DNA from: a virus
DNA: 64,000 nucleotides
Virus record (IMG/VR): IMGVR_UViG_3300010165_000001
Coordinates: 64,001-128,000 of that record
Direction: 5' to 3' (one strand)
Numbering within the stretch: position 1 is the stretch's first letter; every line of letters begins with the position of its first letter. This document shows, in pieces, positions 14,813 through 41,496 of the stretch. The notes under the pieces are model-generated. The model was not told the DNA's origin. It searched no databases and saw only the letters and a program-made list of their open reading frames with translations. Made by a program: the position numbers and the translations under genes.

Positions 14813-16357
14813 CTATATATTTAACATACCATATTTTGTGAATGGAATCAAATGTTTTTTATTATATTTTTCTAGTATGTGTTTTATATCTCTCATATCT
14901 ATGTCTAACCCTGTGTAGTAACCAAACATTCTTAAAGTATTATAGTCTATAATATCATTATAAGCATTTACAAAGTCTGCTCCTAATCGTATATCTGCTT
15001 CAGTATCAGTCAAACCTTCAATCTCTAAGACGTTGTTATTAAGAGGTCGGATTAACCCTATCCTTCTTAGATGTGCTACAGATAAAACTCTAGTTTGTTC
15101 TGAAAGAATTAAATCAATTAAATACATTCTTTGTAGAGGGAACATAGATAATCTATAAGTATTAGTAATTGTTTTAGGTGCATAACTATCTATAATTAGT
15201 AGCTTAACAAACCTATCTATCTTTTCTTTGTCCTCTTGTTCAAATTGTTTTATTTCTTCTTTGAACGTTTGGTAATAATTAAGTAAGTGTTGTTGTTTCT
15301 GCTCGATTAATCCTATTTGATAATCTTCTAAATCCATAGCTACATTAAATACTGTATTAATATCATAAGTTAAATGATGATAGTCTTTAATTAATAATAG
15401 CTTTAATTGTTGTAAGATTGTATCTTCATTATATTCAACTTCACTATTCATTCGTTGTGTGTAGTTAGTGAGTTGTCTATTATCACTATTCATACGATTT
15501 CTAATTGCATCCAGATATTTATAATAATTATCTATCTTTCTTTGTTCTGTAAACTCTACAGGTTGAGGTACAGGTTTATCTTCTTTACCTTGCTCAAACA
15601 TAAAACTATGTGTACTAAATACATTTATCATAAATTTAATTATATCTATTTCATAAGATAGATGATACAGGTATAGGAAATAACCATAAGTTGTGTTACC
15701 AAAGAAATCATCATTAAGAGTTTGTTGTCTTTCGTACTTAACAACTTGTTCTGCATAATAATTAGATTTAGCTTCTAAAGAAGAAATGTATTCTGGATAT
15801 TCATTATTCTTAATTGCTTTCTCTGTTTGTTCTTTAAACTTTCTTTTTCTAACCTTTAAATGTATTGTACAAAGCTTATCATATATTTTTGAAAGTATAT
15901 AAGTCTTAAAATGTTTCTCTGGGTCTGAGGATACTTCAAAGACTTCTTTGGTTGGAAATCTACTATATCTCATTCTAAAGTTCATTTCTTGAATTATTTT
16001 TCTTTCCTCATCTTTAATCGAATCAAAGACAACTTGTTCTTTAGGTGTTCTCTTATTCTCTTTTCTGTAAAATACCCTAGACCTCAAGTCTTTTGCATAA
16101 TCACTATCAGATTCTATAATATTTTCGTTAGTATTGAGAAAATCTTGAAGGTCTACTTCTGTATTAATAATAATATCTAAACCTTGTTTCTTCTTTTCTA
16201 CTTTAATTTTATTCTCTTCTTCTAGTTGTTTTAGTCTACTATTTAATATAGGTATAGAGATACTTAATTTTTCAGCTAGTAATTTCTTAGTTCTTATATT
16301 AAATAATCTTTGCTTACTGTTTTCTTTTAAATATTTAAGTACTTCTTGCTTATCCAC
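14813..16357 (-). CDS. Replication-associated protein (Rep-like), function uncertain
   Basis: 514 aa. The N-terminus looks like a winged-helix segment (..LLAEKLSISIPILNSRLKQLEEENKI..). Size and position between the two helicase genes match what I recall for the 'Rep' gene of phage K. Confidence 0.35.
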   Translation of the reverse strand: MDKQEVLKYLKENSKQRLFNIRTKKLLAEKLSISIPILNSRLKQLEEENKIKVEKKKQGLDIIINTEVDLQDFLNTNENIIESDSDYAKDLRSRVFYRKENKRTPKEQVVFDSIKDEERKIIQEMNFRMRYSRFPTKEVFEVSSDPEKHFKTYILSKIYDKLCTIHLKVRKRKFKEQTEKAIKNNEYPEYISSLEAKSNYYAEQVVKYERQQTLNDDFFGNTTYGYFLYLYHLSYEIDIIKFMINVFSTHSFMFEQGKEDKPVPQPVEFTEQRKIDNYYKYLDAIRNRMNSDNRQLTNYTQRMNSEVEYNEDTILQQLKLLLIKDYHHLTYDINTVFNVAMDLEDYQIGLIEQKQQHLLNYYQTFKEEIKQFEQEDKEKIDRFVKLLIIDSYAPKTITNTYRLSMFPLQRMYLIDLILSEQTRVLSVAHLRRIGLIRPLNNNVLEIEGLTDTEADIRLGADFVNAYNDIIDYNTLRMFGYYTGLDIDMRDIKHILEKYNKKHLIPFTKYGMLNI

Positions 16358-16373
16358 ATTAACCCACCACTTT

Positions 16374-18134
16374 CTATTTTATTTCTCTTACTTCAAAGTT
16401 TTCGTTATCATAAATACTTCTTCTCTCTAAATAATGTTTATAGAGGAATTTGTTTGTCATGTCTATAAAATCGTATATCTGTGTTGTATTATCTTCTTCT
16501 TTACGTCTTAAAGCACGACCTATTCTTTGTAATACTTGCCTTAAGGACTTTCCTCCTGCTGCAATAATTAAAGTATTAATTCCAGAAATATCCACACCTT
16601 CATCTATAAGTGAAGTAGCAATAAGAACTTTAAGTTTACCTGACTTCATATCAGATAAATACTGTTTACGTTTATCTGTTTCTAAATCACCGTAAATAAA
16701 TTCATGAGGAATATCATAACTTTCTAGTAATTCCGATATATTATTACCATGTTGTAAGAAATTAACAATAATTAAAATACCTTTATTATCATAATAACAC
16801 TTTTCTGTTATTTTTGCAACTAATGTATTTCTAAATTCATTATTCACAATACCTTTATCATATGCTACTTGGTATTGATTTTCTTCCTCTAAGTCAGTTG
16901 GGTTAGCTATAGGTATTGAATTGATTGTTGGTCTAGCTGATATTCCTCTTTCTATTAGATAATCATTAGATACTTTAATAAGTATTTCTCCACATAATGC
17001 TTTTAGTCTCTGTACTGTTAGAGGGTCACTGTGGTCAATAGAACCTGTCAGTCCTATTTTGTATAGAGCATTTTCACATTGTAATAAACTTGTATACCAA
17101 GTATCAGATTTAGCATGATGGAACTCATCACCAATGAAACATACAATACTCTGTAAGAAGTCTTTCATCTTGTAGTACTTATCATACTTCTTTTCATTTT
17201 TCTTTCTAAGGATTTCTTGGTACTTAACATTATACGTATTTAATTTCATCATTAATTCTGAATCTGATTTGTGGTCTTGATATATTTTAGTTAGTTCTTC
17301 TTTAAATGCTTGGTCTGCTTTTGTTTTAACTTTCATTTGTTCTAATATTAAGAATAACATTGTTCTCTTGTTAGGTGTTGTAGATAGTTTAGGTAATACC
17401 TGTAAAGCAACCTTCTTATAAATCATTTGTTTCTGGGTTAAAGTTACACCCTCACTTGGGTCTTTAAGATTTGCATTAACTGTAGGTATCATTACCACAT
17501 TTACTTGTTTTATATCAAATGAACCTGCACCTATTTTACCTATAGGAATATTTAGCCTTTCTTTCATTCTGTCTGCTGTTTGATGGAATATTTCTTTACT
17601 GTGTGTGAAGAAAGCAATCGTTTCTCCTTTTTCTAAGTAAGGTAGAAGTTCTTGTATAATTCCTGCTGCTATCTCACTTTTCCCTGCATTAGTGGCTGCA
17701 TTTAATATGCCATTATACTTAACTAGGGATTCTTCTACACCTTCTTGTTGATAGTCTCTTAGTGTAATTGTTCCTATCTTGTTATCTAATAACTTTATTT
17801 CTTTAGTTATATCTTCTGGTTCTAAGAAAGCTTCACTTCTTTCATCCACAACATCAAATTGGAATGTATATCTATTCTGTAAATCGTATAATAATTCCTT
17901 TACTTGTTCTAAGAGACCACTAGGAAATCTATCTTTATCGAATTCATAGAAGTCTGTATATCCATCCCATTTCTTAAGTTTAAATGCTTTAACAAACTGA
18001 TAACCTTGTGCTCTTACGCCTATATGTGTATGAACCCTTTTTCTAAAAACCTCCCTTAACGTTTCTTCATTACCACCAAACTCCACGTAAGTATAAATAT
18101 TTTGTAAATATAATTTCATTTGTTCTCCTTTCAA
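16374..18134 (-). CDS. SF2 (DEAD/DEAH-like) DNA helicase
   Basis: 586 aa. It has motif I (AATNAGKSEI), motif II (FIGDEFHH) and motif VI (QRIGRALRR). Confidence 0.8.
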   Translation of the reverse strand: MKGEQMKLYLQNIYTYVEFGGNEETLREVFRKRVHTHIGVRAQGYQFVKAFKLKKWDGYTDFYEFDKDRFPSGLLEQVKELLYDLQNRYTFQFDVVDERSEAFLEPEDITKEIKLLDNKIGTITLRDYQQEGVEESLVKYNGILNAATNAGKSEIAAGIIQELLPYLEKGETIAFFTHSKEIFHQTADRMKERLNIPIGKIGAGSFDIKQVNVVMIPTVNANLKDPSEGVTLTQKQMIYKKVALQVLPKLSTTPNKRTMLFLILEQMKVKTKADQAFKEELTKIYQDHKSDSELMMKLNTYNVKYQEILRKKNEKKYDKYYKMKDFLQSIVCFIGDEFHHAKSDTWYTSLLQCENALYKIGLTGSIDHSDPLTVQRLKALCGEILIKVSNDYLIERGISARPTINSIPIANPTDLEEENQYQVAYDKGIVNNEFRNTLVAKITEKCYYDNKGILIIVNFLQHGNNISELLESYDIPHEFIYGDLETDKRKQYLSDMKSGKLKVLIATSLIDEGVDISGINTLIIAAGGKSLRQVLQRIGRALRRKEEDNTTQIYDFIDMTNKFLYKHYLERRSIYDNENFEVREIK

Positions 18135-31174: not shown

Positions 31175-31698
31175 GTCTCACCATATTCTTTCTTAATTAA
31201 TGGTAATTGTAATTTTATAAAATCTATATCTAAACTTATATTTCTTAAATCTTGTATAATACTATTATAGTCATCTATTTCACCTAAATAATCACATACA
31301 TAATTAATATTATCACTTAAAATATTTAAATCTTTCTCAGTTAAATGTTTTACATTTTCTGGGTTTTCAGTTAAAGCATTTATTGTAGAATACACCTCTA
31401 AAACAATCAGTTGCATTAAACGATAAACTTTAGAATTTTGCCTTTTTAATCCTGATTTTATAACTCTTCTTACAAAACTATTTTCCCCTAAATCTTGGGA
31501 AGTAAGTTGTACATTACCATTTTTTAAATATTTTAAATTTTCTTCTGCTAATAAACTAATTTGTAAATTAGGTGTATAATAGAAAGAAATAAAATCTAAT
31601 TCATCATCTAACATATTCGTGCTTAAGAAACTATTCTTAACTTCTATACTTGTTAAAAATTTAACCAATTCAGGTGGTTGTGGTATAATTTGATTCAT
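31171..31698 (-). CDS. Baseplate-module hypothetical protein (175 aa)
   Basis: ORF with ATGA-type overlaps on both sides. Size matches a 174-aa gene I recall in phage K. Confidence 0.5.
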   Translation of the reverse strand: MNQIIPQPPELVKFLTSIEVKNSFLSTNMLDDELDFISFYYTPNLQISLLAEENLKYLKNGNVQLTSQDLGENSFVRRVIKSGLKRQNSKVYRLMQLIVLEVYSTINALTENPENVKHLTEKDLNILSDNINYVCDYLGEIDDYNSIIQDLRNISLDIDFIKLQLPLIKKEYGET

Positions 31699-32507
31699 TA
31701 AAATCCTCCTAATCCATAACCAATAGCTAAGGACATATTGCTTAAAGAACCCTCTAAACCATTTGTATTTACTCTTGGATTATATATTGTTCTTCCTTTA
31801 CTATCTACGCCTAATGAGCCTACACCTTCTGGTGACGTTGAACCTTTTCCTCTAGCTCTATCTATCGTATCCATAGCTTGTTTATTTCTAGCATTTTGTT
31901 CTTCCTCTGCTCTTGTTTGGTCTTGTATATACCTATCACTTGTATATCCAGAACTCTTATTGTTATTTCCAATATTAGAAGAATCTATTGTATCAAACTC
32001 AGGTTCTCCTGCATCTCCTAAGATAACTAAAGAAATTTGGTATTTGTATAATAGAGATTGTTCACTTGAACGTTCTATCTTAAATCCTTGTGGAGATAAA
32101 TGTACTTTGTAAGATTCATCATCTGTTAAGTTATAAAACACCATGTCATAAGAACTCTTATTACCACTACCTGCAGTATTACCATATTTATTAATTATAT
32201 CTTCTAGCTCATCTAATTTATCTTTACCATTTTTCATTTTCCCATCAAAATCTTTACGTCTTTTTAATCCTGTTTGACCAGAGAATTGAATTGTTTTTAC
32301 ATCTTGTCCGTAATCTTCATAAAGAATACTTGATTGTGTTTTTAGTACTGAAGTTCTATGTGGTATTTCTTTACTATAATCTTCAGGGTTTACTCTGAAC
32401 CTATATATTTTTGTTGTACCATCACTCTTATGTTTTAATTCTAATACAAAACGTTTTAAAGTATTTCTATCTTTTGTCGTATAATCTGCTTGTGGCACAA
32501 TTTTCAC
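31698..32507 (-). CDS. Baseplate-module hypothetical protein (269 aa)
   Basis: First gene after the terminator at 32586-32612. Size matches a 263-aa gene I recall in phage K. Confidence 0.5.
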   Translation of the reverse strand: MKIVPQADYTTKDRNTLKRFVLELKHKSDGTTKIYRFRVNPEDYSKEIPHRTSVLKTQSSILYEDYGQDVKTIQFSGQTGLKRRKDFDGKMKNGKDKLDELEDIINKYGNTAGSGNKSSYDMVFYNLTDDESYKVHLSPQGFKIERSSEQSLLYKYQISLVILGDAGEPEFDTIDSSNIGNNNKSSGYTSDRYIQDQTRAEEEQNARNKQAMDTIDRARGKGSTSPEGVGSLGVDSKGRTIYNPRVNTNGLEGSLSNMSLAIGYGLGGF

Positions 32508-32585
32508 CTCTCTATATTATAACATATTTTTTATGTATCTCCAATCTATACACAACTAATATAGCACGACCTAGTTATTTTTATT

Positions 32586-32612
32586 AAAAAAAGACCTATA
32601 TAAATAGGTCTT
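32586..32612 (-). terminator. Rho-independent terminator closing the accessory cassette
   Basis: A 9-bp stem, aagacctat/ataggtctt, with a 4-nt loop is followed on the minus strand by T7. It lies 6 nt after the stop of the 32618 gene. Confidence 0.7.
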
Positions 32613-32617
32613 AATAA

Positions 32618-33088
32618 CTAATAGGCTATTATTCTAATTAATTCTTGATTTTCATTTCCTCCAGAAGAATTAGTGCGAAATCCTTCTATATAATTATCTT
32701 GAATGTATATATATTTTTGTACAAAAGCTCCTCCTTGAGCCCCTAATATAAATTTAGTAGCTTTTTCTGATTCTGTTACGTAAGGGTGAACTTTAGGAAC
32801 GTACTGATAGTTGTAATTATGTGAACTACCTGTTTGTTTAAATAGAAATATCCATCCATTTTTACACTCAGTCAGTTTTTTATCTATATCTATTCTTTCT
32901 CCATCACCTAAAATAGACTTACCTTCCCACAATATAGTATATAGTGGTTCTCTTGTATCATTCATTATATCCTCAACATCATATTTCCACTGTTCTAAAG
33001 TCTGACCATTATTAAATGTAACGTTACCTGATAATGTTTTAGGGTACAGTTGTTGGTATTTACCATTATTATTTCCATTCATTTGCAT
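32618..33088 (-). CDS. Small knob-like protein related to the C-terminal domain of the RBP paralogues
   Basis: 156 aa. It contains ..QQLYPKTLSGNV.. and then ILWEGKSILGDGERIDIDKKL...ELIRIIAY. This parallels VLWQGALSF...TRIIGYN (18203 protein) and YLWDGTLDL...KRITGIN (20016 protein). Confidence 0.5.
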   Translation of the reverse strand: MQMNGNNNGKYQQLYPKTLSGNVTFNNGQTLEQWKYDVEDIMNDTREPLYTILWEGKSILGDGERIDIDKKLTECKNGWIFLFKQTGSSHNYNYQYVPKVHPYVTESEKATKFILGAQGGAFVQKYIYIQDNYIEGFRTNSSGGNENQELIRIIAY

Positions 33089-34183
33089 TTAGTTATTACC
33101 CCTTATTTGTATATTGTCATATTCATTTGTCGGGTACTTAGGTAAACCTGCTCCATATTTCTCAACTTCTCCAAGATTTTCAGCATTAACAGACATTCTC
33201 TGCAATATTTTTTCCCTATCTTCACCATATTTTTGTTTATATAGTATATATATTCCTAATGTAGCTGGTGCAGCATAAGAAGTTCCTGTTCCTGAATTAT
33301 ATGATTGACTTACTTCTTTTGTCTTATCTATAGTTGTAGATAATATACTCGTTCCTCCGTTTGAAAAATCTATATTTCTTCCTACAGAACTATTTAGATT
33401 CTTCTCTTTATTATCTTTAATATTAGCACAAGTTACTACAAAAGGATATTTAGACGGGTATACTACATTATGAGATTCTTGGTCATCTGAAGGTTGGGTA
33501 TTACCTGCACTACAAAAAATAGCTACCCCTGCTTCATAAGCAGCTCGAAAAGCTTCTTTTCTTGCATAGGATTCTGTGGTACTAGAGAAAGAACAATTTA
33601 CAGCATCCATACCATTTTCTATAGCCCAATTTATTCCTTTTATTTGGGAACTCCATATTGTCCTATTTATACCACCTTTACCATCATCTATTCTTATAGC
33701 GTATAAATCTACATCAGGAGCTATACCTAAAACTTTATTATCTAAACCTTTAGATGCTATAATACCTCCAACTCTTGTTCCATGACTACTCACTAAGTCT
33801 TTATCGTAAGGTACACTTGAATCATAAGCATTATATCCACCCGCTAAAACTATATTTTCATGTTTTTGTATACCTGTATCCATAACCCCTACCTTAAACC
33901 CTTTACCTGTAATTCCTTCTTTATGAAATTCCTTAATATTCATCATATCAAAAGCATAGGTTGTTTCTGTAGATTCTAAATTAGTTTCATCTGTAGTATC
34001 ATTACTATCTTTTTCTATGCTTAATATACTAGGTTCTTTATATAATTCCTTAACATCTTCCTCTTCCATATAACAAATACAAATTCTTTTTATGTGTTTT
34101 AATTTTTCTATTTTTATTGCTCCATGATTTGAAAGTAACTCTTCGTTACCTTCTCTATTAAAAGTTATTAAATATTTATTCAT
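33089..34183 (-). CDS. Subtilisin-like (S8) serine protease with an I9-like N-terminal prodomain
   Basis: 364 aa. The catalytic triad motifs are intact: VGVMDTGI (Asp), SSHGTRVGGIIA (His) and GTGTSYAAPA (Ser). The oxyanion region is DAVNCSFSS. The N-terminal ~70 aa (YLITFNREGNEELL...LSIEKD) looks like an inhibitor_I9 propeptide. I see no signal peptide. Confidence 0.85.
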   Translation of the reverse strand: MNKYLITFNREGNEELLSNHGAIKIEKLKHIKRICICYMEEEDVKELYKEPSILSIEKDSNDTTDETNLESTETTYAFDMMNIKEFHKEGITGKGFKVGVMDTGIQKHENIVLAGGYNAYDSSVPYDKDLVSSHGTRVGGIIASKGLDNKVLGIAPDVDLYAIRIDDGKGGINRTIWSSQIKGINWAIENGMDAVNCSFSSTTESYARKEAFRAAYEAGVAIFCSAGNTQPSDDQESHNVVYPSKYPFVVTCANIKDNKEKNLNSSVGRNIDFSNGGTSILSTTIDKTKEVSQSYNSGTGTSYAAPATLGIYILYKQKYGEDREKILQRMSVNAENLGEVEKYGAGLPKYPTNEYDNIQIRGNN

Positions 34184-34965
34184 TAGTCAGTCACCTCAAA
34201 CCAAATCATTGCTTCTTGTGGTTCTTCTTTAGATACTACGATAGGATTCCTAGTTATTAGTTTATCTTTGACCTTATCATTAACTTTTAGACTTTCTAAG
34301 AATGGGTAGTACATTAAGTTTTCTTTTTCAACTGTTTCTCTCTTTTGATATTCTTCTACAGCCTTAACTACAGCATCTGCATAATCATATAACTTCTGAG
34401 TCCAGTTGTTTTTATTTTCTCTATTCGACCTTGACCAATTTCCACCTAAAAAGAAATCTTTTCGTTGTTGTGTAGAAAGTTCTAATTGTACACCCATGCC
34501 TAAAGTTGTTCTATTAGCAATATTCATTGGTTCTACACCTGCTAGATTTCCTGGTGATTCTCTACAGTCAAAACCTTTTTCTGCTAAATTTTTCCAAATC
34601 AGGTTTTTAAGGGCAGTATTTCCACCACCCATATATGTGTAACTTCCATCTCCTGCTGCTCCATGTACAGATATAGAATGTTTTGAATCTTGTATCTTAG
34701 ATATAATTCTAGGTGCATCATACCTTGTACTCGTTACATGTAGTTGTGTATTGTTACTAGATAATTTAGCTACAAAAGAGAAATAATTATATCCACCTTT
34801 TTCGGCTATCACTCTCGCTAATTCAGTACTACCTATCTCAATACCGCCACCATGTACAGCCATAGATATAATATCACTAGGTGCATCAATTGTTTCTATA
34901 TCCCAATCTGTTCCTTCTGTTGTTTTACTCATAAGGTCAGTCATAGAATTATATAAGTCTGCCAA
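34183..34965 (-). CDS. Poly-gamma-glutamate hydrolase family protein (PghP-like, UPF0714 zinc hydrolase)
   Basis: 260 aa. The blocks AVHGGGIEIGSTEL, QLHVTSTRYDAP, SISVHGAAGD and GVQLELSTQQRKDFF match the blocks I remember from Bacillus phage PhiNIT1 PghP (HAGGIEVGTTEL, LHVTSTHFDEP, SFHG, GVQLEISSAQRRAFF). These include the His/Glu/His metal ligands. Confidence 0.8.
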   Translation of the reverse strand: MADLYNSMTDLMSKTTEGTDWDIETIDAPSDIISMAVHGGGIEIGSTELARVIAEKGGYNYFSFVAKLSSNNTQLHVTSTRYDAPRIISKIQDSKHSISVHGAAGDGSYTYMGGGNTALKNLIWKNLAEKGFDCRESPGNLAGVEPMNIANRTTLGMGVQLELSTQQRKDFFLGGNWSRSNRENKNNWTQKLYDYADAVVKAVEEYQKRETVEKENLMYYPFLESLKVNDKVKDKLITRNPIVVSKEEPQEAMIWFEVTD

Positions 34966-37900
34966 CTATAGACCCTCCTTTATTTTATACGTAGGTAATG
35001 GTTTATCTACAAAATATAAATCTTTAATAACTGAGTCTACCGTTGTTGATAATTTAATTGTATCTGAAATAGTTCCTGTATAGGATATATAATTAGTTAC
35101 ATTATCTACTTCATTATCTATCATAATACATAACACTTTAGTATTTGTAGACCATTTAACTGTTACTTTATTAAATGTATTTTCTTTAATTTTTTTAGAA
35201 CTTTGTATTGTTACCCCACCTACCGTAGCCTTAACTTGACCACTATTAACCGTTTGTACTAAAATACCTCCACCATCAATAATTGTATTATTAGATAAAG
35301 TTGTAGGTTCTATTTGAATACTTAATGTTCCTTCATTTAAGTTTAACACACTATTAGGAACTTGTAAAGTCTCACTTAAAGACTTAAATACTTCTATACC
35401 TCCATCTTTATAAATAGGTTCATTATTATTAAATGTTACTCCTCTATCAGTAATACTACTATTCCTTGTGAATATCGCTGTGTAATCTTTTGGTTTTTCT
35501 GTATCAGATATCGGGCTACTTAAATCTTTAATGTCATCTTTCGTAGCATATTCATATTTAGGAGTATATTTAGTTAATTCACCTGTACTTCTCTTATAAC
35601 TTACTTGATAGAAGTAATCATAATTTAATCCTTTTATTTTAACATAATAAGTTAAATTATTCATATTCTCTACCTCTACTCTACAACCTGTTGGTATAGA
35701 ACCTCCACCAAAATCTTTAATTGTTATTTTACTTGAGTAAAAAACAATATTATCTTGGAATGTATCTTTCATATAAATGATAAGCTCTTCTATTGTATTT
35801 ATGAATTCTCCTGTATATTCATTCACTAATTTGTTATCAATATTTGTCTTATAAGGATTATAATTAGCTGTAGGTGCTAAGAATGGTTCACCTATTGCAT
35901 TAAACGTATAGTCTTTTTCTTTAGGTTTATATTCTACAAGTAATACACCTTGTTTATTAGCATTAGCATTTGTTCTACCTTTATATACAATAATACTGAA
36001 TAGTCTATTGTTGTACGAGAAAGCACCTTCATGTTCAATAATATCTGCTGTTTTCCCTTGTGCACTTAAATAATCTTTCAGTTCTTGTGGGTGATAAGTG
36101 TAATCATTCATAATATCCCCACTAGGGCTTATCTCTTGTACACCTTGTAAATGGTATGTGTGTATTTCTGTATCTCTAGAAGGATTGTAGTTACCTCCTA
36201 ATGTTTGTACTATTGTGTTATTAACTAAAGTCATACCTTGTTTCTTAGCTGAATTATTCGTAACCCCAGTTAATAAATCATCAGACCATAAAGTTGAGTT
36301 AGAAGGGTTTATCCATAAGTAACCTGTTCGTTTACTAAAGTCTTTATTGAAGAATACAATTGTATCTCTTTGTAAATATACTCCTTTGGTTTGATTATAA
36401 TATTCTACTCCCCAACCATCTTTAGTTCTAAAGAAGTTCATGTAAGCATTTAAATTAAACTCTTTAATTGGTGTTAAAGTAGATTTCTCTTGTATATTTC
36501 TTAGGCTTGTAACATCAAACTTACCAATATTAAAACTATCTGTTCTAGCATAAAGATATGTTTTATTACCTTCTGTTTCTACATGTAATCCTTCTCCACC
36601 TGTAGTTCCTGCGAAGAACATGTTTACATATTTAAAGAATTCATCGTATACAACAATCAGTCTTTTACTCCCTGATTCTGGTGCTGAGTGTATAATATAC
36701 GTATAACCGTTATGAATTGCTAATCCTTGTGGGAATAAATAAGATAAATTTTCAGATGTTATAATACTATCATAATCTTTAAATTTAAAAGGTAAATCTG
36801 CATGTATCTTTATATCTCTAAATGTTGTTTGTCTATATTTCTCTTCTGTTTGTTTAATCTCTGGAATACTATCTACATTCAAATCATCTTTAAATGTTAC
36901 TAACTCTCGAATAATCTCATCATTTGTTTTTACGTATTTATTAATGTTACTCATAAAATTATTTAAGTTAGTAATATTACCCTCTACTCTTGAAGATACT
37001 TGTTGAACTTGAGTATTAAGTCCTGTAACTTGTTCTAAAGCACTTTTAGAACGTTGTTCAGACCTTTCAGAAGCATCTATAACTTCTAATAGGTTTTGTT
37101 TACCTGCACCATCTAAAAGGTTATTCACACCTTCTAAAGATTCTTGGATTGCTTTTAATTTAGATAACTGTTCATCTATCTGATTATCTATATCATCTAT
37201 CATAGGTTTACCATCTAAAAGTAATCCTTGGTCAGTAAATCTTAAATCATGATTACCGTTTTTTATATAGAAATCGTTATGTTCTTTATCTATACCGTAT
37301 TCTACATAATCTTGTCCGTTATCAAGTATTAAATCATCTTTCTGGGATAATGTACGTTGGTTTCCTTGGTCGTCAATCTCCCAAGAAGTTCTACTATTCG
37401 TTTCAGTATTAAGTACAGAGAACCTAAGCGTACCTTGTTCTGTTAGCTGTAACATTGTAATATGGTTATTTGTATTTAAATCTCCTTGGTGTTTAAATAA
37501 CATATCAGGTGCTCTTTGGTTTCTAGATTCAATGATTTCACCATTACCATATTTAGAAGACATTAAGTCTTCATATTCTGTACCTATACCAAAATCAGTT
37601 GCCATTGGTTTTTCATCGTCTTCAGATGTTATTGATAGGAAAGAGTTACCATTTAAACTTCTAACAATTGTACCATTACCATTTTGGAATGAGTAATTTA
37701 AAGAAGGGAAGATAGAAAACATCATACTACCGTAAGTATAAATATCATCGTTTCTAATGTCTCCACTCTCTAATGGATTAGGTGTTAGCATCTTACTATC
37801 CTCTGGATTAGAATAAATAGATAAGACAATAGGGTTTCCACTTTCACCTTCTATAAATCCTAATAAAACTAGCATACCTGGAATAATTAATGGTGTAGAA

Positions 37901-38136: not shown

Positions 38137-39039
38137 TTATTTACCCTCCACGTAAAAATCAAATATAGGGTCTTTATATCTCATAACTCTTCCGTTAAAA
38201 GCTTCCCAAAGTTCTTCTAACTTATAAGTTTTCACTTTTCCAGATTCGTCTATAGGGAAGTGACCTATAATAGTTGCTACTTCTCCATCTCCCATATAAA
38301 TACCTACATTATCGTCATTAATACCAAAGAATATTAAATCTCCTTCATTAATTTTTGAAATGTCATCTTTATATTTATGACCCTTTTCTAGTATAGTATT
38401 AAAATTCTCTCCTGTCAAGACATTAACACTTCTTAATGGATATTCTAATTCTACATCTACATTATAGTATAGCCAATAGATAAAGTTATATGAATCACAA
38501 GGAAGTTGTTTATCATCATTCACTAATGGATTCTGAAAGGGATAACCTTTATACATATAATAAATATTATCTAAATTAACGTTACCTATCATATATTCAT
38601 AGTAAGCTTGTTCTGACTTTCTAAGTTCAGGTTGTAGGTCTTCATAATCCATATAGGTAGCATATATTTGCTGTATGTCTGAAGATAAGGAACTTATAAA
38701 ATAACTTGATTTAAGTGTTCTTTCTACTTTTATTTGTTCAGTATGTTCTGATTCAGCCTTCTTACCATCATAAGTATGTGTTAAGGTTCTTACCTTAATA
38801 TTTACTTCATATAATCCTGTTTGTATTTCTTTTATATCATAGTTAGAGTTTGTTATTATCATTTGTTGAATTACATTAGAGTAAGGTCTTAAATGTGAAG
38901 CTGAATCTACTGTATCTGTTTCTGCTATTTGTTCTAATTCTTTTTGTTTATCAAATATTGTATCTTCATCAAAATCTTTTTCATATTCATATATATTTTT
39001 AATATACATCTCTACTATTTTATTAATATCTGTATCCAA
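38137..39039 (-). CDS. NlpC/P60-like putative tail peptidase
   Basis: 300 aa. It has a candidate catalytic Cys (QLPCDSYNFIYWLY) and a distal ..EGDLIFFGINDDNVGIYMGDGEVATIIGH.. segment typical of NlpC/P60. Size and position match the 295-aa hydrolase I recall in phage K. Confidence 0.5.
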   Translation of the reverse strand: MDTDINKIVEMYIKNIYEYEKDFDEDTIFDKQKELEQIAETDTVDSASHLRPYSNVIQQMIITNSNYDIKEIQTGLYEVNIKVRTLTHTYDGKKAESEHTEQIKVERTLKSSYFISSLSSDIQQIYATYMDYEDLQPELRKSEQAYYEYMIGNVNLDNIYYMYKGYPFQNPLVNDDKQLPCDSYNFIYWLYYNVDVELEYPLRSVNVLTGENFNTILEKGHKYKDDISKINEGDLIFFGINDDNVGIYMGDGEVATIIGHFPIDESGKVKTYKLEELWEAFNGRVMRYKDPIFDFYVEGK

Positions 39040-39051
39040 AATAGAACCTCC

Positions 39052-41496
39052 TTAATCGTAAATAAACTTAGCATTTTTCCCTTCAGGTGAACTCATTTGT
39101 ATTGTTCTTTCACCATAACCTTTTGGTGTATCATAGTTGTATTCAGAAACATGGAAAGATTTACCATCACTTGATACAGATTCAACAAAAGCTACGTGAC
39201 CATATTGACCTGAACCACCTGCTACCCCTCTTTGCCAAACACCAACTGCACCTTGTTTAGGTGTACTTCCTGTTTTAACTCCTGCTGCTTTAGCTGTTCC
39301 TATCCATTCGGCAGCATCTCCTGCAAATGGTGTGCTTAATCCTAGTTCATATCGTCTATTGTAACAATACCAAGTACATTGTCTAGCCCATTGACCTGTG
39401 TTAGGGTTTCCTGGTGCTATCCATGAAGTATTTGATTTATTTTTAGGTGTCGGTAGTTTACCTTTATATTTTTTAAGACCTGATAGTGTTCCCCCACCAT
39501 GTTCACTTCCACCATCACCATCTCCATCACCAGATTTCTTCTTCTTAGAAGCTACACCTTCTTCTTTAAGTTGTGTTAAAGTTTTCTCTCCTAAATATCC
39601 ACCTAAGAAATCTACACTTTGACCCCATAAGAAAGCAAATCTATTAGATGAACCTGATTCATTTTTATCATTAGGTTCCATTCTTAAACCTCTTGTTACT
39701 CCTAGAGTTGTTGTGTACCCTTGTTGCATATCAAAGTTATGTTCAACAGATTCTATATAATATTCCCAACGTTCATTATTCTGTCTATTGTGCATGATTA
39801 ATCTTTTACCTAAATCATAATCTCCACTACCTAATACTGTTAGTGTACCGTTAGAGAAGTTTTGGTTTGCATGATACCAATTAAATAATTTTTTAGAGAA
39901 TATAGAAAAAGCATTATCACCTGCAGCTGCTCCTGTTTCTTGAGCATTTTGAACTCTTTGTTTAGCTCTATCTGTAAACTTCTTATAGTCTTCTGAAGTT
40001 AAAGCACCTTTTTTCTTCTTAAAATCTGCTGTTAATTGTGCTATATGTGTTTCTTTAATCATAGGGTATTTTTCTTTAATTGCTTTAGTTAATTTCTTAT
40101 AATCACTATCTTCTTTAAAAGTTTCTTTGAATTTACTTTGAGGATATTTACCTTCTACAAAACTTTGTACGTCTTTTGCTGAAGGGAATTTACTAATTGC
40201 ATCTTCAGTTACTTTTCTATTAGGGTCTATTCCTGTTACTTCTTGGAAGTATTCAGGAGGTAAACTGTTTGTTTTAATATATTTCTCTACAAGTTTCTTA
40301 GCTTTAGGTTTATCTAATCCTCTATATTTAGAAGACATTCTCTTGACAATTCCATCTTTATCTCTAGAAACACGTTTTTGTCCTAAGTCTTCAAGTTCGT
40401 TAAATATTTGGTCGTATGTTATTTCAACATTACCTTTATCGTCATTTTCTTGACTATCTCCTTCTTCAGAGTTACTATCTGAATCAGTCATAGGTAAGAA
40501 CATGTATTCTGCTTCTAGTTTCTTATACCCATACCTATTTCTTAAAGCTCTATGAGTTTGTGGTTTAGAAGATACTGTAGAAGATAATTCTTTAGTTTGT
40601 TGTGGTGTTACAACATTAAATACTGCGTATGATTCAACATCAGATTTACCTAAGTCTTCATTAATTAATCTTCCAGTGTCTTCATGAACAATTTCTAAAG
40701 CTCTCCAGTCACTTGGGTCAAATGGGGTTCTCCTTAATACTAATTCTGACTTGCCTTCTTCTCCATTTCTAAAGAATAATTCATTAAATGGTTTACAAGT
40801 AATTAAATCTAACATCTGTTTGAAATTACCGTCAAAATTAATTAAGTTTGAATGGTCTTGTAAGTTTTCATATTCTTCCCAACTAGCTAAGTTTCTAGTA
40901 AAGTTACTCTTAAGTGTTTTATCTACATTACCATTCTCACCTGAGTAATCATATTTCATATATTCTAAAAATCTATCTAAAGCTGAATTCATAACTTCTT
41001 TTGCTGTTTTACCAGTAAATTCAATACCATGTTCTTTATCATCTGGTAACCATCCTACACTAGAAGAAAGAACTGCACTTACTTCTTGTATAATACCTAA
41101 ACCAAAGTTTAAAAATGGTTTAGAGAATGATTGTCCTGTTACTCTGTATACTGCTTTATCATTAGAGTGTTCTCCAACTGTAGATACTTGACTTACCATT
41201 CCGTTTAGTATTAAGTGCTCTTTTCCATCTATAATTGTTTCATCTTCTATTACGTATATTTTAATAATATCATTTGCTTGTAGCACTCTATCCCATTGAA
41301 CATCTCCGTAGAGGATAATTTGGAATACTGCACTATCATCAGACATTGAGTTTTTTGTTTGAAATTGTATAGCACGACTTGTTTTTTCTTTATCAGTAGC
41401 TGAAGCTCTTGCTTCATATTCAAAAGATACAGCATTAGTATCGTTAATAGCCTCTACTCTGAATCTTGGTCGTCTTACGTGATAGCTTTTAGTCAA
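39052..41496 (-). CDS. Tail-associated murein hydrolase with a C-terminal CHAP domain
   Basis: 814 aa. A Gly/Asp linker (SGDGDGDGGSEHGGG) is followed by a CHAP domain (..WARQCTWYCYNRRYELG...QYGHVAFVESV..). Size and position match the ~808-aa tail lysin I recall in phage K. Confidence 0.75.
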   Translation of the reverse strand: MTKSYHVRRPRFRVEAINDTNAVSFEYEARASATDKEKTSRAIQFQTKNSMSDDSAVFQIILYGDVQWDRVLQANDIIKIYVIEDETIIDGKEHLILNGMVSQVSTVGEHSNDKAVYRVTGQSFSKPFLNFGLGIIQEVSAVLSSSVGWLPDDKEHGIEFTGKTAKEVMNSALDRFLEYMKYDYSGENGNVDKTLKSNFTRNLASWEEYENLQDHSNLINFDGNFKQMLDLITCKPFNELFFRNGEEGKSELVLRRTPFDPSDWRALEIVHEDTGRLINEDLGKSDVESYAVFNVVTPQQTKELSSTVSSKPQTHRALRNRYGYKKLEAEYMFLPMTDSDSNSEEGDSQENDDKGNVEITYDQIFNELEDLGQKRVSRDKDGIVKRMSSKYRGLDKPKAKKLVEKYIKTNSLPPEYFQEVTGIDPNRKVTEDAISKFPSAKDVQSFVEGKYPQSKFKETFKEDSDYKKLTKAIKEKYPMIKETHIAQLTADFKKKKGALTSEDYKKFTDRAKQRVQNAQETGAAAGDNAFSIFSKKLFNWYHANQNFSNGTLTVLGSGDYDLGKRLIMHNRQNNERWEYYIESVEHNFDMQQGYTTTLGVTRGLRMEPNDKNESGSSNRFAFLWGQSVDFLGGYLGEKTLTQLKEEGVASKKKKSGDGDGDGGSEHGGGTLSGLKKYKGKLPTPKNKSNTSWIAPGNPNTGQWARQCTWYCYNRRYELGLSTPFAGDAAEWIGTAKAAGVKTGSTPKQGAVGVWQRGVAGGSGQYGHVAFVESVSSDGKSFHVSEYNYDTPKGYGERTIQMSSPEGKNAKFIYD

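Follow-up and report, generated by a model that had tools for sequence, protein, structure and literature searches.

Known phage virion-associated enzymes attack polysaccharides, teichoic acids, peptidoglycan or lipids, and we know of no characterised general protease that is delivered by a virion and aimed at bacterial surface proteins. The baseplate tripod of the lactococcal phage Tuc2009 is built from BppU, BppA and BppL, which are respectively an anchor, an accessory protein and a small receptor-binding protein (RBP), where the accessory BppA is a carbohydrate-binding module and not an enzyme. In phage 812, the baseplate central spike is a trimer whose distal part, below the baseplate, is made up of a coiled coil, a TNF-like 'knob' and a phosphodiesterase 'petal'; the knob resembles lactococcal RBP heads, and the authors propose that the spike binds and cleaves wall teichoic acid before it is released (PMC13433997). 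Here we analyse the equivalent region in IMG/VR virus record IMGVR_UViG_3300010165_000001, using a stretch of 64,000 nucleotides (positions 64,001 to 128,000 of the record; hereafter the window), which comes from a Baoshanvirus (Herelleviridae, Twortvirinae) phage of Staphylococcus. The subject is an open reading frame (ORF) for a subtilisin-like protease of family S8 (hereafter S8), together with the short gene that follows it (hereafter Y).

The gene itself is known from annotation in relatives, where it is uncharacterised. What appears to be undescribed is the cassette architecture in which it sits and the placement of that cassette at the tip of the central spike. Sequence comparison suggests that a virus bearing S8 carries a protease to the bacterial surface, and the cassette at the spike tip is a concrete, testable case for a tail-tip protease.

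A three-part cassette behind unrelated tail proteins

The elements of the cassette in the window are as follows.

33089..34183, minus strand: S8A subtilisin-like protease ORF, 364 aa plus stop (Pfam PF00082, phmmer against the PDB, AlphaFold2/Foldseek)
34186..34242, minus strand: tail motif IVVSKEEPQEAMIWFEVTD, at the very C-terminal end of the upstream protein, which in the window is PghP
34191-34197, minus strand: Shine-Dalgarno GAGGTGA of S8, within the tail motif
32618..33088, minus strand: Y, 156 aa, with a predicted adaptor at residues 1-47 (32948-33088) and a predicted receptor-binding head at residues 48-156 (32621-32947)

On the plus strand, the translation of 33089-34183 is full of stops. 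We compare this arrangement across 13 loci, collected from exact-protein look-ups on long contigs and from annotated phage regions, which include myophages (the window, Golestan101-M, BS1 and BS2) as well as siphovirus prophages and phage contigs, among them those of Mammaliicoccus sciuri and Staphylococcus sp. The order is the same in 13 of 13: an upstream gene, then S8, then a gene for 149-163 aa, with the upstream stop overlapping the S8 start. A first-pass annotation of the window, made from the letters alone, had called the protease free-standing; across these loci it is instead the middle gene of a cassette that ends in a receptor-binding head protein. Gene order and sequence show a mobile cassette of three parts, namely the tail motif, the protease, and an adaptor with its head protein, in which S8 is always the middle gene.

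The upstream proteins are mutually unrelated. They comprise spikes of 895 and 968 aa, PghP (260 aa in the window, and found also in RSM-J51Sa), a 244-aa protein with BppU_N and collagen, 262-293-aa proteins with collagen repeats, fibres of 648 and 761 aa, and small proteins of 94-172 aa that sit between Dit and Tal. All of them end in a motif of about 15 residues, [IV][IV]VS.xEP.....[IV]WFEV[TVI][DE]. In the codon table of this motif E(-4) is always GAG and V(-3) always GTG, and with the next base they read GAGGTGA; these two residues are fixed at the nucleotide level because this string is a strong Shine-Dalgarno for S8. Further upstream in the motif, each of the conserved residues V, S, E, P and A is written with two to four synonymous codons, which argues for conservation at the protein level. 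In the Baoshanvirus myophages the cassette comes directly after the central-spike gene, and BS1 and Golestan101-M carry the motif on the C-terminus of the spike itself, while in the siphovirus prophages the cassette comes after genes for BppU_N/collagen-like fibres.

How strictly do these parts travel together? Among 50,697 phage records, the adaptor and the tail motif have significant tblastn matches only in the 12 records that bear S8, and a consensus tblastn of the same records found none in which motif and Y adaptor are adjacent without S8. We also considered that the tail motif and the Y adaptor might be the two halves of a shared fibre junction of the HylP type, 'GEIGFETDT...GDG', which an inserted S8 would have split; these records contained no contiguous version. 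A profile search of genome contigs with the S8 family alignment returned only generic subtilisins at no more than 35% identity and no cassette, and a scan of viral contigs with the family gave three close relatives only. One protein cluster, P0092 (509 aa), is a natural fusion of S8 with Y.

The third gene, Y, always follows S8 and always begins MQM.Y...G.F..LYPKTL..NV..NNGQ.LE.WK. Its C-terminal domain is of at least two unrelated types, and the adaptor is kept where the head differs (L008, L009 and P0092). By tblastn, residues ~50-156 of Y match lactococcal 936-type RBPs (E 2e-9), and the head also matches phage 187 ORF019, many S. pseudintermedius siphoviruses and the C-terminus of Enterococcus phage EF24C ORF032. 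In profile searches of 1.84 billion representative proteins, the head is the extreme C-terminal domain in 1348 clusters, with proteins of 100-1750 aa, and matches to the adaptor (1-47) that include its start come almost exclusively from some 17 short proteins that stand alone. The AlphaFold2 model of Y, with a mean predicted local distance difference test (pLDDT) of 74.7, is confident in the head and not at the N-terminus, and has Foldseek matches to a monocin side fibre, phage K gp144 and phi812 baseplate chains; by sequence Y has no match in the PDB, where the link to RBP heads comes from the fold search only. Because of the head matches, the 1348 clusters, the near-restriction of the adaptor to about 17 proteins and the fold matches, we read Y as a receptor-binding head on a special adaptor, a reading drawn from sequence and model.

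The same head can also be fused directly to a carrier, with no motif, adaptor or S8, as in EF24C ORF032 and in P0123, a spike-like C-terminus that precedes the tube initiator on a short contig. By comparison with these relatives, motif, S8 and adaptor behave as a unit that replaces a covalent stalk-head link. EF24C ORF032 was also tried as an orthologue of the central spike and rejected (BLASTP to the window spike, E 0.29), and it serves here only as an example of a fused head. In a separate Y homologue, P0125 (196 aa), residues ~31-109 are repeated, either through misassembly or as a genuine tandem duplication.

The window also preserves what looks like the point of entry of the cassette.

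34186..34284, minus strand: 33-aa C-terminal extension of PghP, absent from the otherwise near-identical PghP of vB_SurM-PSU4, and the probable recombination junction of the cassette

While the PSU4 protein ends ...FLESLKFKKY, the window PghP runs ...FLESLK followed by VNDKVKDKLITRNPIVVSKEEPQEAMIWFEVTD, which ends in the tail motif. The 33 added residues match the C-terminus of a BS1-type central spike (phrog_22693 positions 936-968) and, judging by this alignment, the extension is the mark of the recombination that brought in the cassette. RSM-J51Sa carries the same chimeric PghP, and the chimera is therefore a real lineage and not an assembly artefact. The ~50 nt that encode the tail motif are nearly identical in BS1, Golestan101-M and the window, whereas the S8 proteins encoded downstream are only 55% identical. 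Thus the motif seems also to be the left homology arm for cassette exchange, and the conserved tube-initiator region would be the right arm.

The tail region of the window is 98.4% identical to PSU4 and 94% identical to RSM-J51Sa and vB_SsapH-Golestan101-M. The DNA of the S8 gene is 96-97% identical in the latter two, where it is annotated 'extracellular serine protease', and the protein is ~55% identical in phiSA_BS1/BS2 ('protease'), EW36/EW42, PG-2021_19, JDF86 and OPT-SC01. The homologues at the same locus include phiSA_BS1 gp021 ('protease') and Golestan101-M ORF121 ('extracellular serine protease'), and PHROG 3677 bears the name 'protease'. With one or the other of these names already present in about ten Baoshanvirus genomes, the S8 gene is not a new discovery, and the earlier impression that such a protease is unfamiliar in phage K-like phages does not survive the comparison. 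The Golestan101-M paper does not mention the gene, and we found no paper in the searchable literature on it or on S8 proteases in tail modules.

The closest relative shows that the cassette can be absent: PSU4 runs from spike to PghP to tail tube initiator without S8 and without the following ORF. More broadly, S8 is present at the tail locus in 12 of the 222 Staphylococcus phage records that match this tail region. The gene is thus accessory and not the conventional, universal morphogenetic protease that the first-pass annotation had named as the contrary case.

More distant S8 genes occur in other settings. PSU4 has a second S8 peptidase (record 14850-17129; 28.6% identical), which lies in an early or accessory region beside a gene for an SGNH-type 'lipase acylhydrolase' and has no counterpart within the window. 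The Bacillus phages Tsamsa and Goe8 encode S8 proteases, 25-29% identical, among non-structural genes; in Goe8 the S8 gene and a PghP gene are separated by ~1 kb containing three small ORFs, and the pairing of PghP with S8 thereby recurs in an unrelated phage, outside a tail context. In BFVD, S8-fold domains are found inside proteins annotated as cyanophage baseplate or tail-fibre proteins, so that, as far as annotation goes, an S8 domain carried by the virion has a precedent.

The protease as a predicted subtilisin zymogen

The S8 ORF divides into four segments.

34010..34183, minus strand: prodomain, residues 1-58, I9-type b-a-b-b-a-b order (3whi alignment and AlphaFold2 order)
33962..34009, minus strand: acidic Ser/Thr-rich linker, residues 59-74, DSNDTTDETNLESTET, disordered in the model at 61-66 (pLDDT <50)
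33143..33961, minus strand: catalytic domain, residues 75-347, with four active-site residues invariant in 57 homologues
33878-33880, 33782-33784, 33500-33502 and 33278-33280, minus strand: verified active-site codons of Asp102, His134, Asn228 and Ser302, in that order
33092..33142, minus strand: conserved C-terminal extension PKYPTNEYDNIQIRGNN, outside the subtilisin fold

The catalytic residues lie in VGVMDTGI (Asp102), SSHGTRVGG (His134) and GTGTSYAAPA (Ser302), with the oxyanion-hole asparagine in SAGN (Asn228). Residues 93-346 match the Pfam profile Peptidase_S8 (PF00082) along the whole length (E 4.8e-32; 111.9 bits, cutoff 21.8), and a phmmer search of all PDB sequences yields subtilisins DY, E and BPN' (E 1e-35 to 1e-31). 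An AlphaFold2 model built from 57 homologues (mean pLDDT 89.7) places the catalytic domain on subtilisins by Foldseek with a root-mean-square deviation (rmsd) of 1.5-1.8 Å and template-modelling scores of 0.92-0.93. In the family alignment of these 57 homologues, which are 43-90% identical to the query, Asp102, His134, Asn228 (aligned to BPN' N155) and Ser302 are invariant, from which we conclude that S8 is under selection to stay catalytically competent. Motifs, profile, PDB matches and model thus all agree with the first-pass annotation that the protease is intact with a full triad, and the ORF, as predicted from sequence and model, encodes a catalytically competent S8A zymogen.

The substrate pockets behave differently from one another. 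The equivalents of the BPN' S4-pocket residues are invariant in the family and changed from those of BPN' (Y104 to W177, I107 to Q180 and L135 to R208), whereas the equivalents of S1-pocket residues E156 and G166, at positions 229 and 241, vary widely (T/N/R/K and R/V/G/P). This pattern suggests a family with a fixed P4 preference and a variable P1 preference. Elsewhere in the domain, Cys197 (NCSFS; 33595-33593, minus strand) is invariant and Cys224 (FCSAGN; 33514-33512, minus strand) nearly so. They align to BPN' Met124 and Ala151, which we take to sit on adjacent strands of the central sheet, and the two cysteines could form a disulfide or a buried pair.

The prodomain proposed by the first-pass annotation stands on fold and alignment but not on the family profile: Pfam Inhibitor_I9 matches neither the whole protein nor residues 1-90 alone at E<=10. 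Residues 14-347 align to unprocessed pro-subtilisin E (3whi residues 27-357) in one phmmer alignment that includes the propeptide, and the AlphaFold2 model orders residues 2-58 as E2-8, H14-19, E23-27, E34-39, H41-47 and E53-58 with pLDDT 84-96. Natural relatives that have no prodomain (L009/L010 and P0085) begin exactly at the predicted mature N-terminus, 'SYAY(D/E)FM', and in these the start codon overlaps the upstream stop. The full-length model superposes on 3whi with an rmsd of 16.7 Å, which means that the orientation of the prodomain in the model is non-canonical or not defined. The linker is the least conserved segment of the protein (mean column identity 0.40 in the 57-sequence alignment) and is where the autoprocessing site, itself only inferred, is expected. 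There is no signal peptide, again as first annotated, and no hydrophobic stretch resembling one, the highest Kyte-Doolittle mean being 0.62 over 12-residue windows starting in the first 40 residues.

BSwM-KMM1 was considered as another natural variant without a prodomain and set aside, as the record is frameshifted and the prodomain is present as a separate 64-aa ORF. In that record (OP902294.1 85608-95492) frameshifts split the central spike and S8 into several small ORFs, and the seemingly missing prodomain is an artefact of the record or belongs to a set of pseudogenes.

At the other end of the protein, the extension PKYP...Y.NIQIRG has a mean column identity of 0.69, the same as the catalytic domain, with P348, P351 and N357 nearly invariant. 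Its last codons, AGG GGT, are the Shine-Dalgarno for Y.

Possible roles of the protease

Subtilisin prodomains chaperone folding and keep the enzyme silent. Reasoning from sequence and from analogy, we tentatively favour, at somewhat less than an even chance, a zymogen that is tethered to the tail tip and cleaves host surface proteins. The upstream protein, S8 and Y would assemble into one distal tail-tip complex, with the tail motif and the Y adaptor as its docking elements. S8 would fold in the cytoplasm, held latent there by its prodomain, and would then ride on the virion; once the head binds a wall receptor, the protease would cleave host surface proteins that shield the wall. It would in this way parallel, as a protease, the 812 petal and the adjacent PghP, whose own task would be to strip poly-gamma-glutamate capsule. 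Several coagulase-negative staphylococci make such a capsule. In favour of this reading are the invariant active site, the constant make-up of the cassette with its protein-level conservation of motif and adaptor, the position at the central-spike locus, the matches of the Y model to phage K gp144 and phi812 baseplate chains, the lack of the cassette in PSU4, the probable single transcription unit that closes after Y, and the S8-fold domains in BFVD; the P0092 fusion and the conserved C-terminal extension of S8 speak for a physical link. The first-pass annotation had listed three roles, namely degrading biofilm matrix or adhesins to expose the receptor, processing virion proteins, and acting on the host late in infection; the genetic context favours action on the host surface from the tail tip, and also allows virion-protein processing.

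Several observations weigh against a tail-tip protease acting on the host. Part of the conservation flanking S8 is forced by nucleotides, because the end of the motif (E-V-x-D/E) and the end of S8 (R-G) both encode Shine-Dalgarnos. The physical link between the proteins is drawn from synteny, flanking peptides and a single fusion cluster (P0092, on a 2.5-kb metagenomic contig); a profile of the S8-Y junction matched 14 proteins, none of them across the junction, though it missed P0092 itself and so says little. The S4 residues W177, Q180 and R208 are kept across phages of different hosts and fit a conserved phage-encoded substrate as readily as a host one, although the S1 residues vary. In the window the motif is carried by PghP, in which no virion anchor can be recognised, and the complex here might not be virion-bound; the PghP homologue of Bacillus phage PhiNIT1 is a soluble enzyme. 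The modelled placement of the prodomain is non-canonical or undefined, given its deviation from 3whi, and the searchable literature yielded neither virion proteomics nor structural or enzymological work on any member of the S8 family.

If S8 acts on a phage protein, it need have no target on the host and could be an assembly or maturation protease that works in the infected cell on the upstream tail motif or on the N-terminus of Y (MQM.Y...) and so lets the head mount. Proteolysis in fibre maturation has precedents in the S74 chaperone peptidases and in the processing of T-even gp37. The motif and the Y adaptor are the only constant companions of S8, as expected of an enzyme and its substrates, the S4 pocket is invariant across the family, and both the P0092 fusion and the single in-frame stop between S8 and Y in the window would suit cleavage in cis. 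Yet Y-like heads are fused to their carriers in EF24C ORF032, P0123 and hundreds more proteins, from which it follows that the head needs no protease to fold or mount; the upstream protein ends 2-3 residues past the motif, leaving almost nothing to remove; the S1 pocket varies; and PSU4 assembles its tail without S8. We consider maturation unlikely on balance, while regarding it as a serious candidate. A related idea, argued from analogy, is that the protease fold itself couples the parts of a split tail fibre: that the S8 cleft clamps the upstream C-terminus (...WFEV-x-D/E-COOH) in the way that subtilisin holds its cleaved propeptide, or that S8 works as a transpeptidase and ligates this end to Y. 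In the ligation variant the last 2-3 motif residues would be removed and the spike or fibre joined to the N-terminus of the head protein. PatG is an S8-fold macrocyclase that acts as a transpeptidase, and we nonetheless put clamp and ligation, taken jointly, as very improbable.

The cassette could also hold together without any structural role for S8. Motif and adaptor would then bind each other directly, and S8, its gene settled at a split junction of spike and head, would like PghP be a soluble passenger released at lysis that degrades biofilm matrix or the surface proteins of neighbouring cells for the benefit of progeny. The S8 genes of Bacillus phages in non-structural regions, once near a PghP gene, are consistent with this, as are the motif carrier of the window, a PghP with no recognisable anchor domain, and a prodomain typical of secreted degradative subtilisins. 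However, a passenger of 1.1 kb should commonly be lost, and among the loci and phage records searched none has motif and adaptor adjacent minus S8; the protease bears a conserved C-terminal extension and in one cluster is naturally fused to Y; and the way its start and stop codons overlap or abut those of both neighbours suggests that the products are made in stoichiometric amounts. This possibility seems to us rather improbable. At the opposite extreme, the subtilisin fold could be only a structural adaptor between spike and head with its catalysis irrelevant, a thought prompted by the position of the gene where a stalk-head linker would be and by the direct stalk-head fusions of relatives. 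Since none of the 57 sequences, some only 43% identical, departs from the triad, the oxyanion Asn or the cleft walls, which is unexpected of a purely structural part, we give a mere connector scarcely any credence.

If the tail-tip protease is real, the cassette is a portable module of protease and receptor-binding head that is plugged onto unrelated tail proteins by a short C-terminal motif, and that is common to myoviruses and siphoviruses of staphylococci and relatives. Phage host-range and biofilm biology would gain a new class of enzyme, some of the variation at the Twortvirinae central-spike locus would be accounted for, and a natural docking system would be at hand for fitting therapeutic staphylococcal phages with foreign heads or enzymes. 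Should S8 instead mature the joint, tail-fibre assembly would have a protease of a new kind, and should it ligate, an enzyme would be joining in trans two virion proteins whose genes flank its own.

The locus and its relation to known systems

On the minus strand the genes run in the order hub, weld, central spike, PghP, S8 and Y, followed by a terminator-like hairpin, a promoter-like site and the tail tube initiator.

39052-41496, minus strand: hub
38137..39039, minus strand: weld protein homologue, 300 aa, NlpC/P60-like (9euf_A, E 3.7e-43; Pfam NLPC_P60 22.8 bits, cutoff 23; named after PMC13433997)
34966..38136, minus strand: baseplate central spike, 1056 aa, residues 1-413 matching phage 812 gp112 (9euf_B/9eul, phmmer E 9e-116)
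34183..34965, minus strand: PghP-like poly-gamma-glutamate hydrolase, 260 aa (Pfam PF05908, E 6.9e-54, residues 5-197)
32591..32612, minus strand: terminator-like hairpin directly after Y, AAGACCTATTTATATAGGTCTT and then a T run (consensus scan only)
32516-32543, minus strand: promoter-like site, extended -10, ahead of the tail tube initiator gene (consensus scan only)
31698..32507, minus strand: tail tube initiator, the conserved right-hand flank of the cassette (Pfam PF23980, E 1.6e-87)

At the junction TAATG the last base of the PghP stop TAA is also the first of the S8 ATG, and the ATG of Y comes directly after the S8 stop in the same frame. Together with the hairpin after Y, these junctions bear out the earlier description of S8 as overlapping PghP, abutting the next ORF and co-expressed with tail genes, and they point to translational coupling and to a transcript shared with these genes that would end after Y. 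From the consensus scans, the block from spike to Y and the baseplate genes may be separate transcription units.

The window spike shares with phage 812 only its N-terminal 413 aa and has a different distal part. Within the spike, residues 875-1056 (34969-35514, minus strand) start with an internal junction-like copy of the motif, PISDTEKPKDYTAIF, at 35470-35514. The ~167-residue C-terminal domain after it has no Pfam or NCBIfam match and is outside the PHROG match (positions 1-850); by eye it looks lectin/LamG-like. The spikes of Golestan101-M and BS1 end at the junction motif, without this domain.

How, then, does the cassette compare with described systems? Its enzyme is nearest to the Bacillus pro-subtilisins E, BPN' and DY (MEROPS S8A, I9 propeptide), with which it shares the order of Asp, His and Ser, the oxyanion Asn and the topology of the propeptide, at 29-33% identity and with a catalytic-domain rmsd of 1.5-1.8 Å. 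Unlike these, S8 has no signal peptide, is encoded in a phage tail operon and carries an extra conserved C-terminal tail; it has a five-residue insertion near the 100-104 loop and W/Q/R in S4 in place of Y104/I107/L135, its prodomain is undetected by Pfam I9, and some members of the family have no prodomain at all. The Baoshanvirus homologues have the same gene at the same locus, 54-97% identical, with the same 156-aa ORF after it. They differ in that phiSA_BS1/BS2 and Golestan101-M have the motif on the spike itself, while the window and RSM-J51Sa have a motif-bearing PghP between spike and S8. That neighbour, a PghP of the PhiNIT1 type, is likewise an accessory hydrolase of surface polymers, with a fold and substrate different from those of S8, and in the window it has gained the cassette motif.

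S74 fibre chaperones are, like S8, serine peptidases genetically tied to a trimeric fibre. An S74 domain, however, is the C-terminal part of its fibre, uses a Ser-Lys dyad and removes itself, whereas S8 is a separate ORF with a subtilisin fold and a D-H-S triad, and Pfam S74 has no match in the S8 protein. The Tuc2009 tripod has a gene order like that of the cassette, the siphovirus cassettes stand behind BppU_N genes, and the Y head is homologous to lactococcal RBP heads. The knob and petal of the phage K/812 spike occupy the same genomic, and presumably the same physical, position as the cassette, at the distal end of the central spike, and follow the same logic of an RBP-type saccharide-binding head combined with a hydrolytic enzyme for the outermost wall layer. 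In 812 both domains are covalently part of the spike and the enzyme is a glycerophosphodiesterase; in the cassette, which is known from its genes alone, the enzyme would be a serine protease zymogen, and the parts would be separate polypeptides that need docking.

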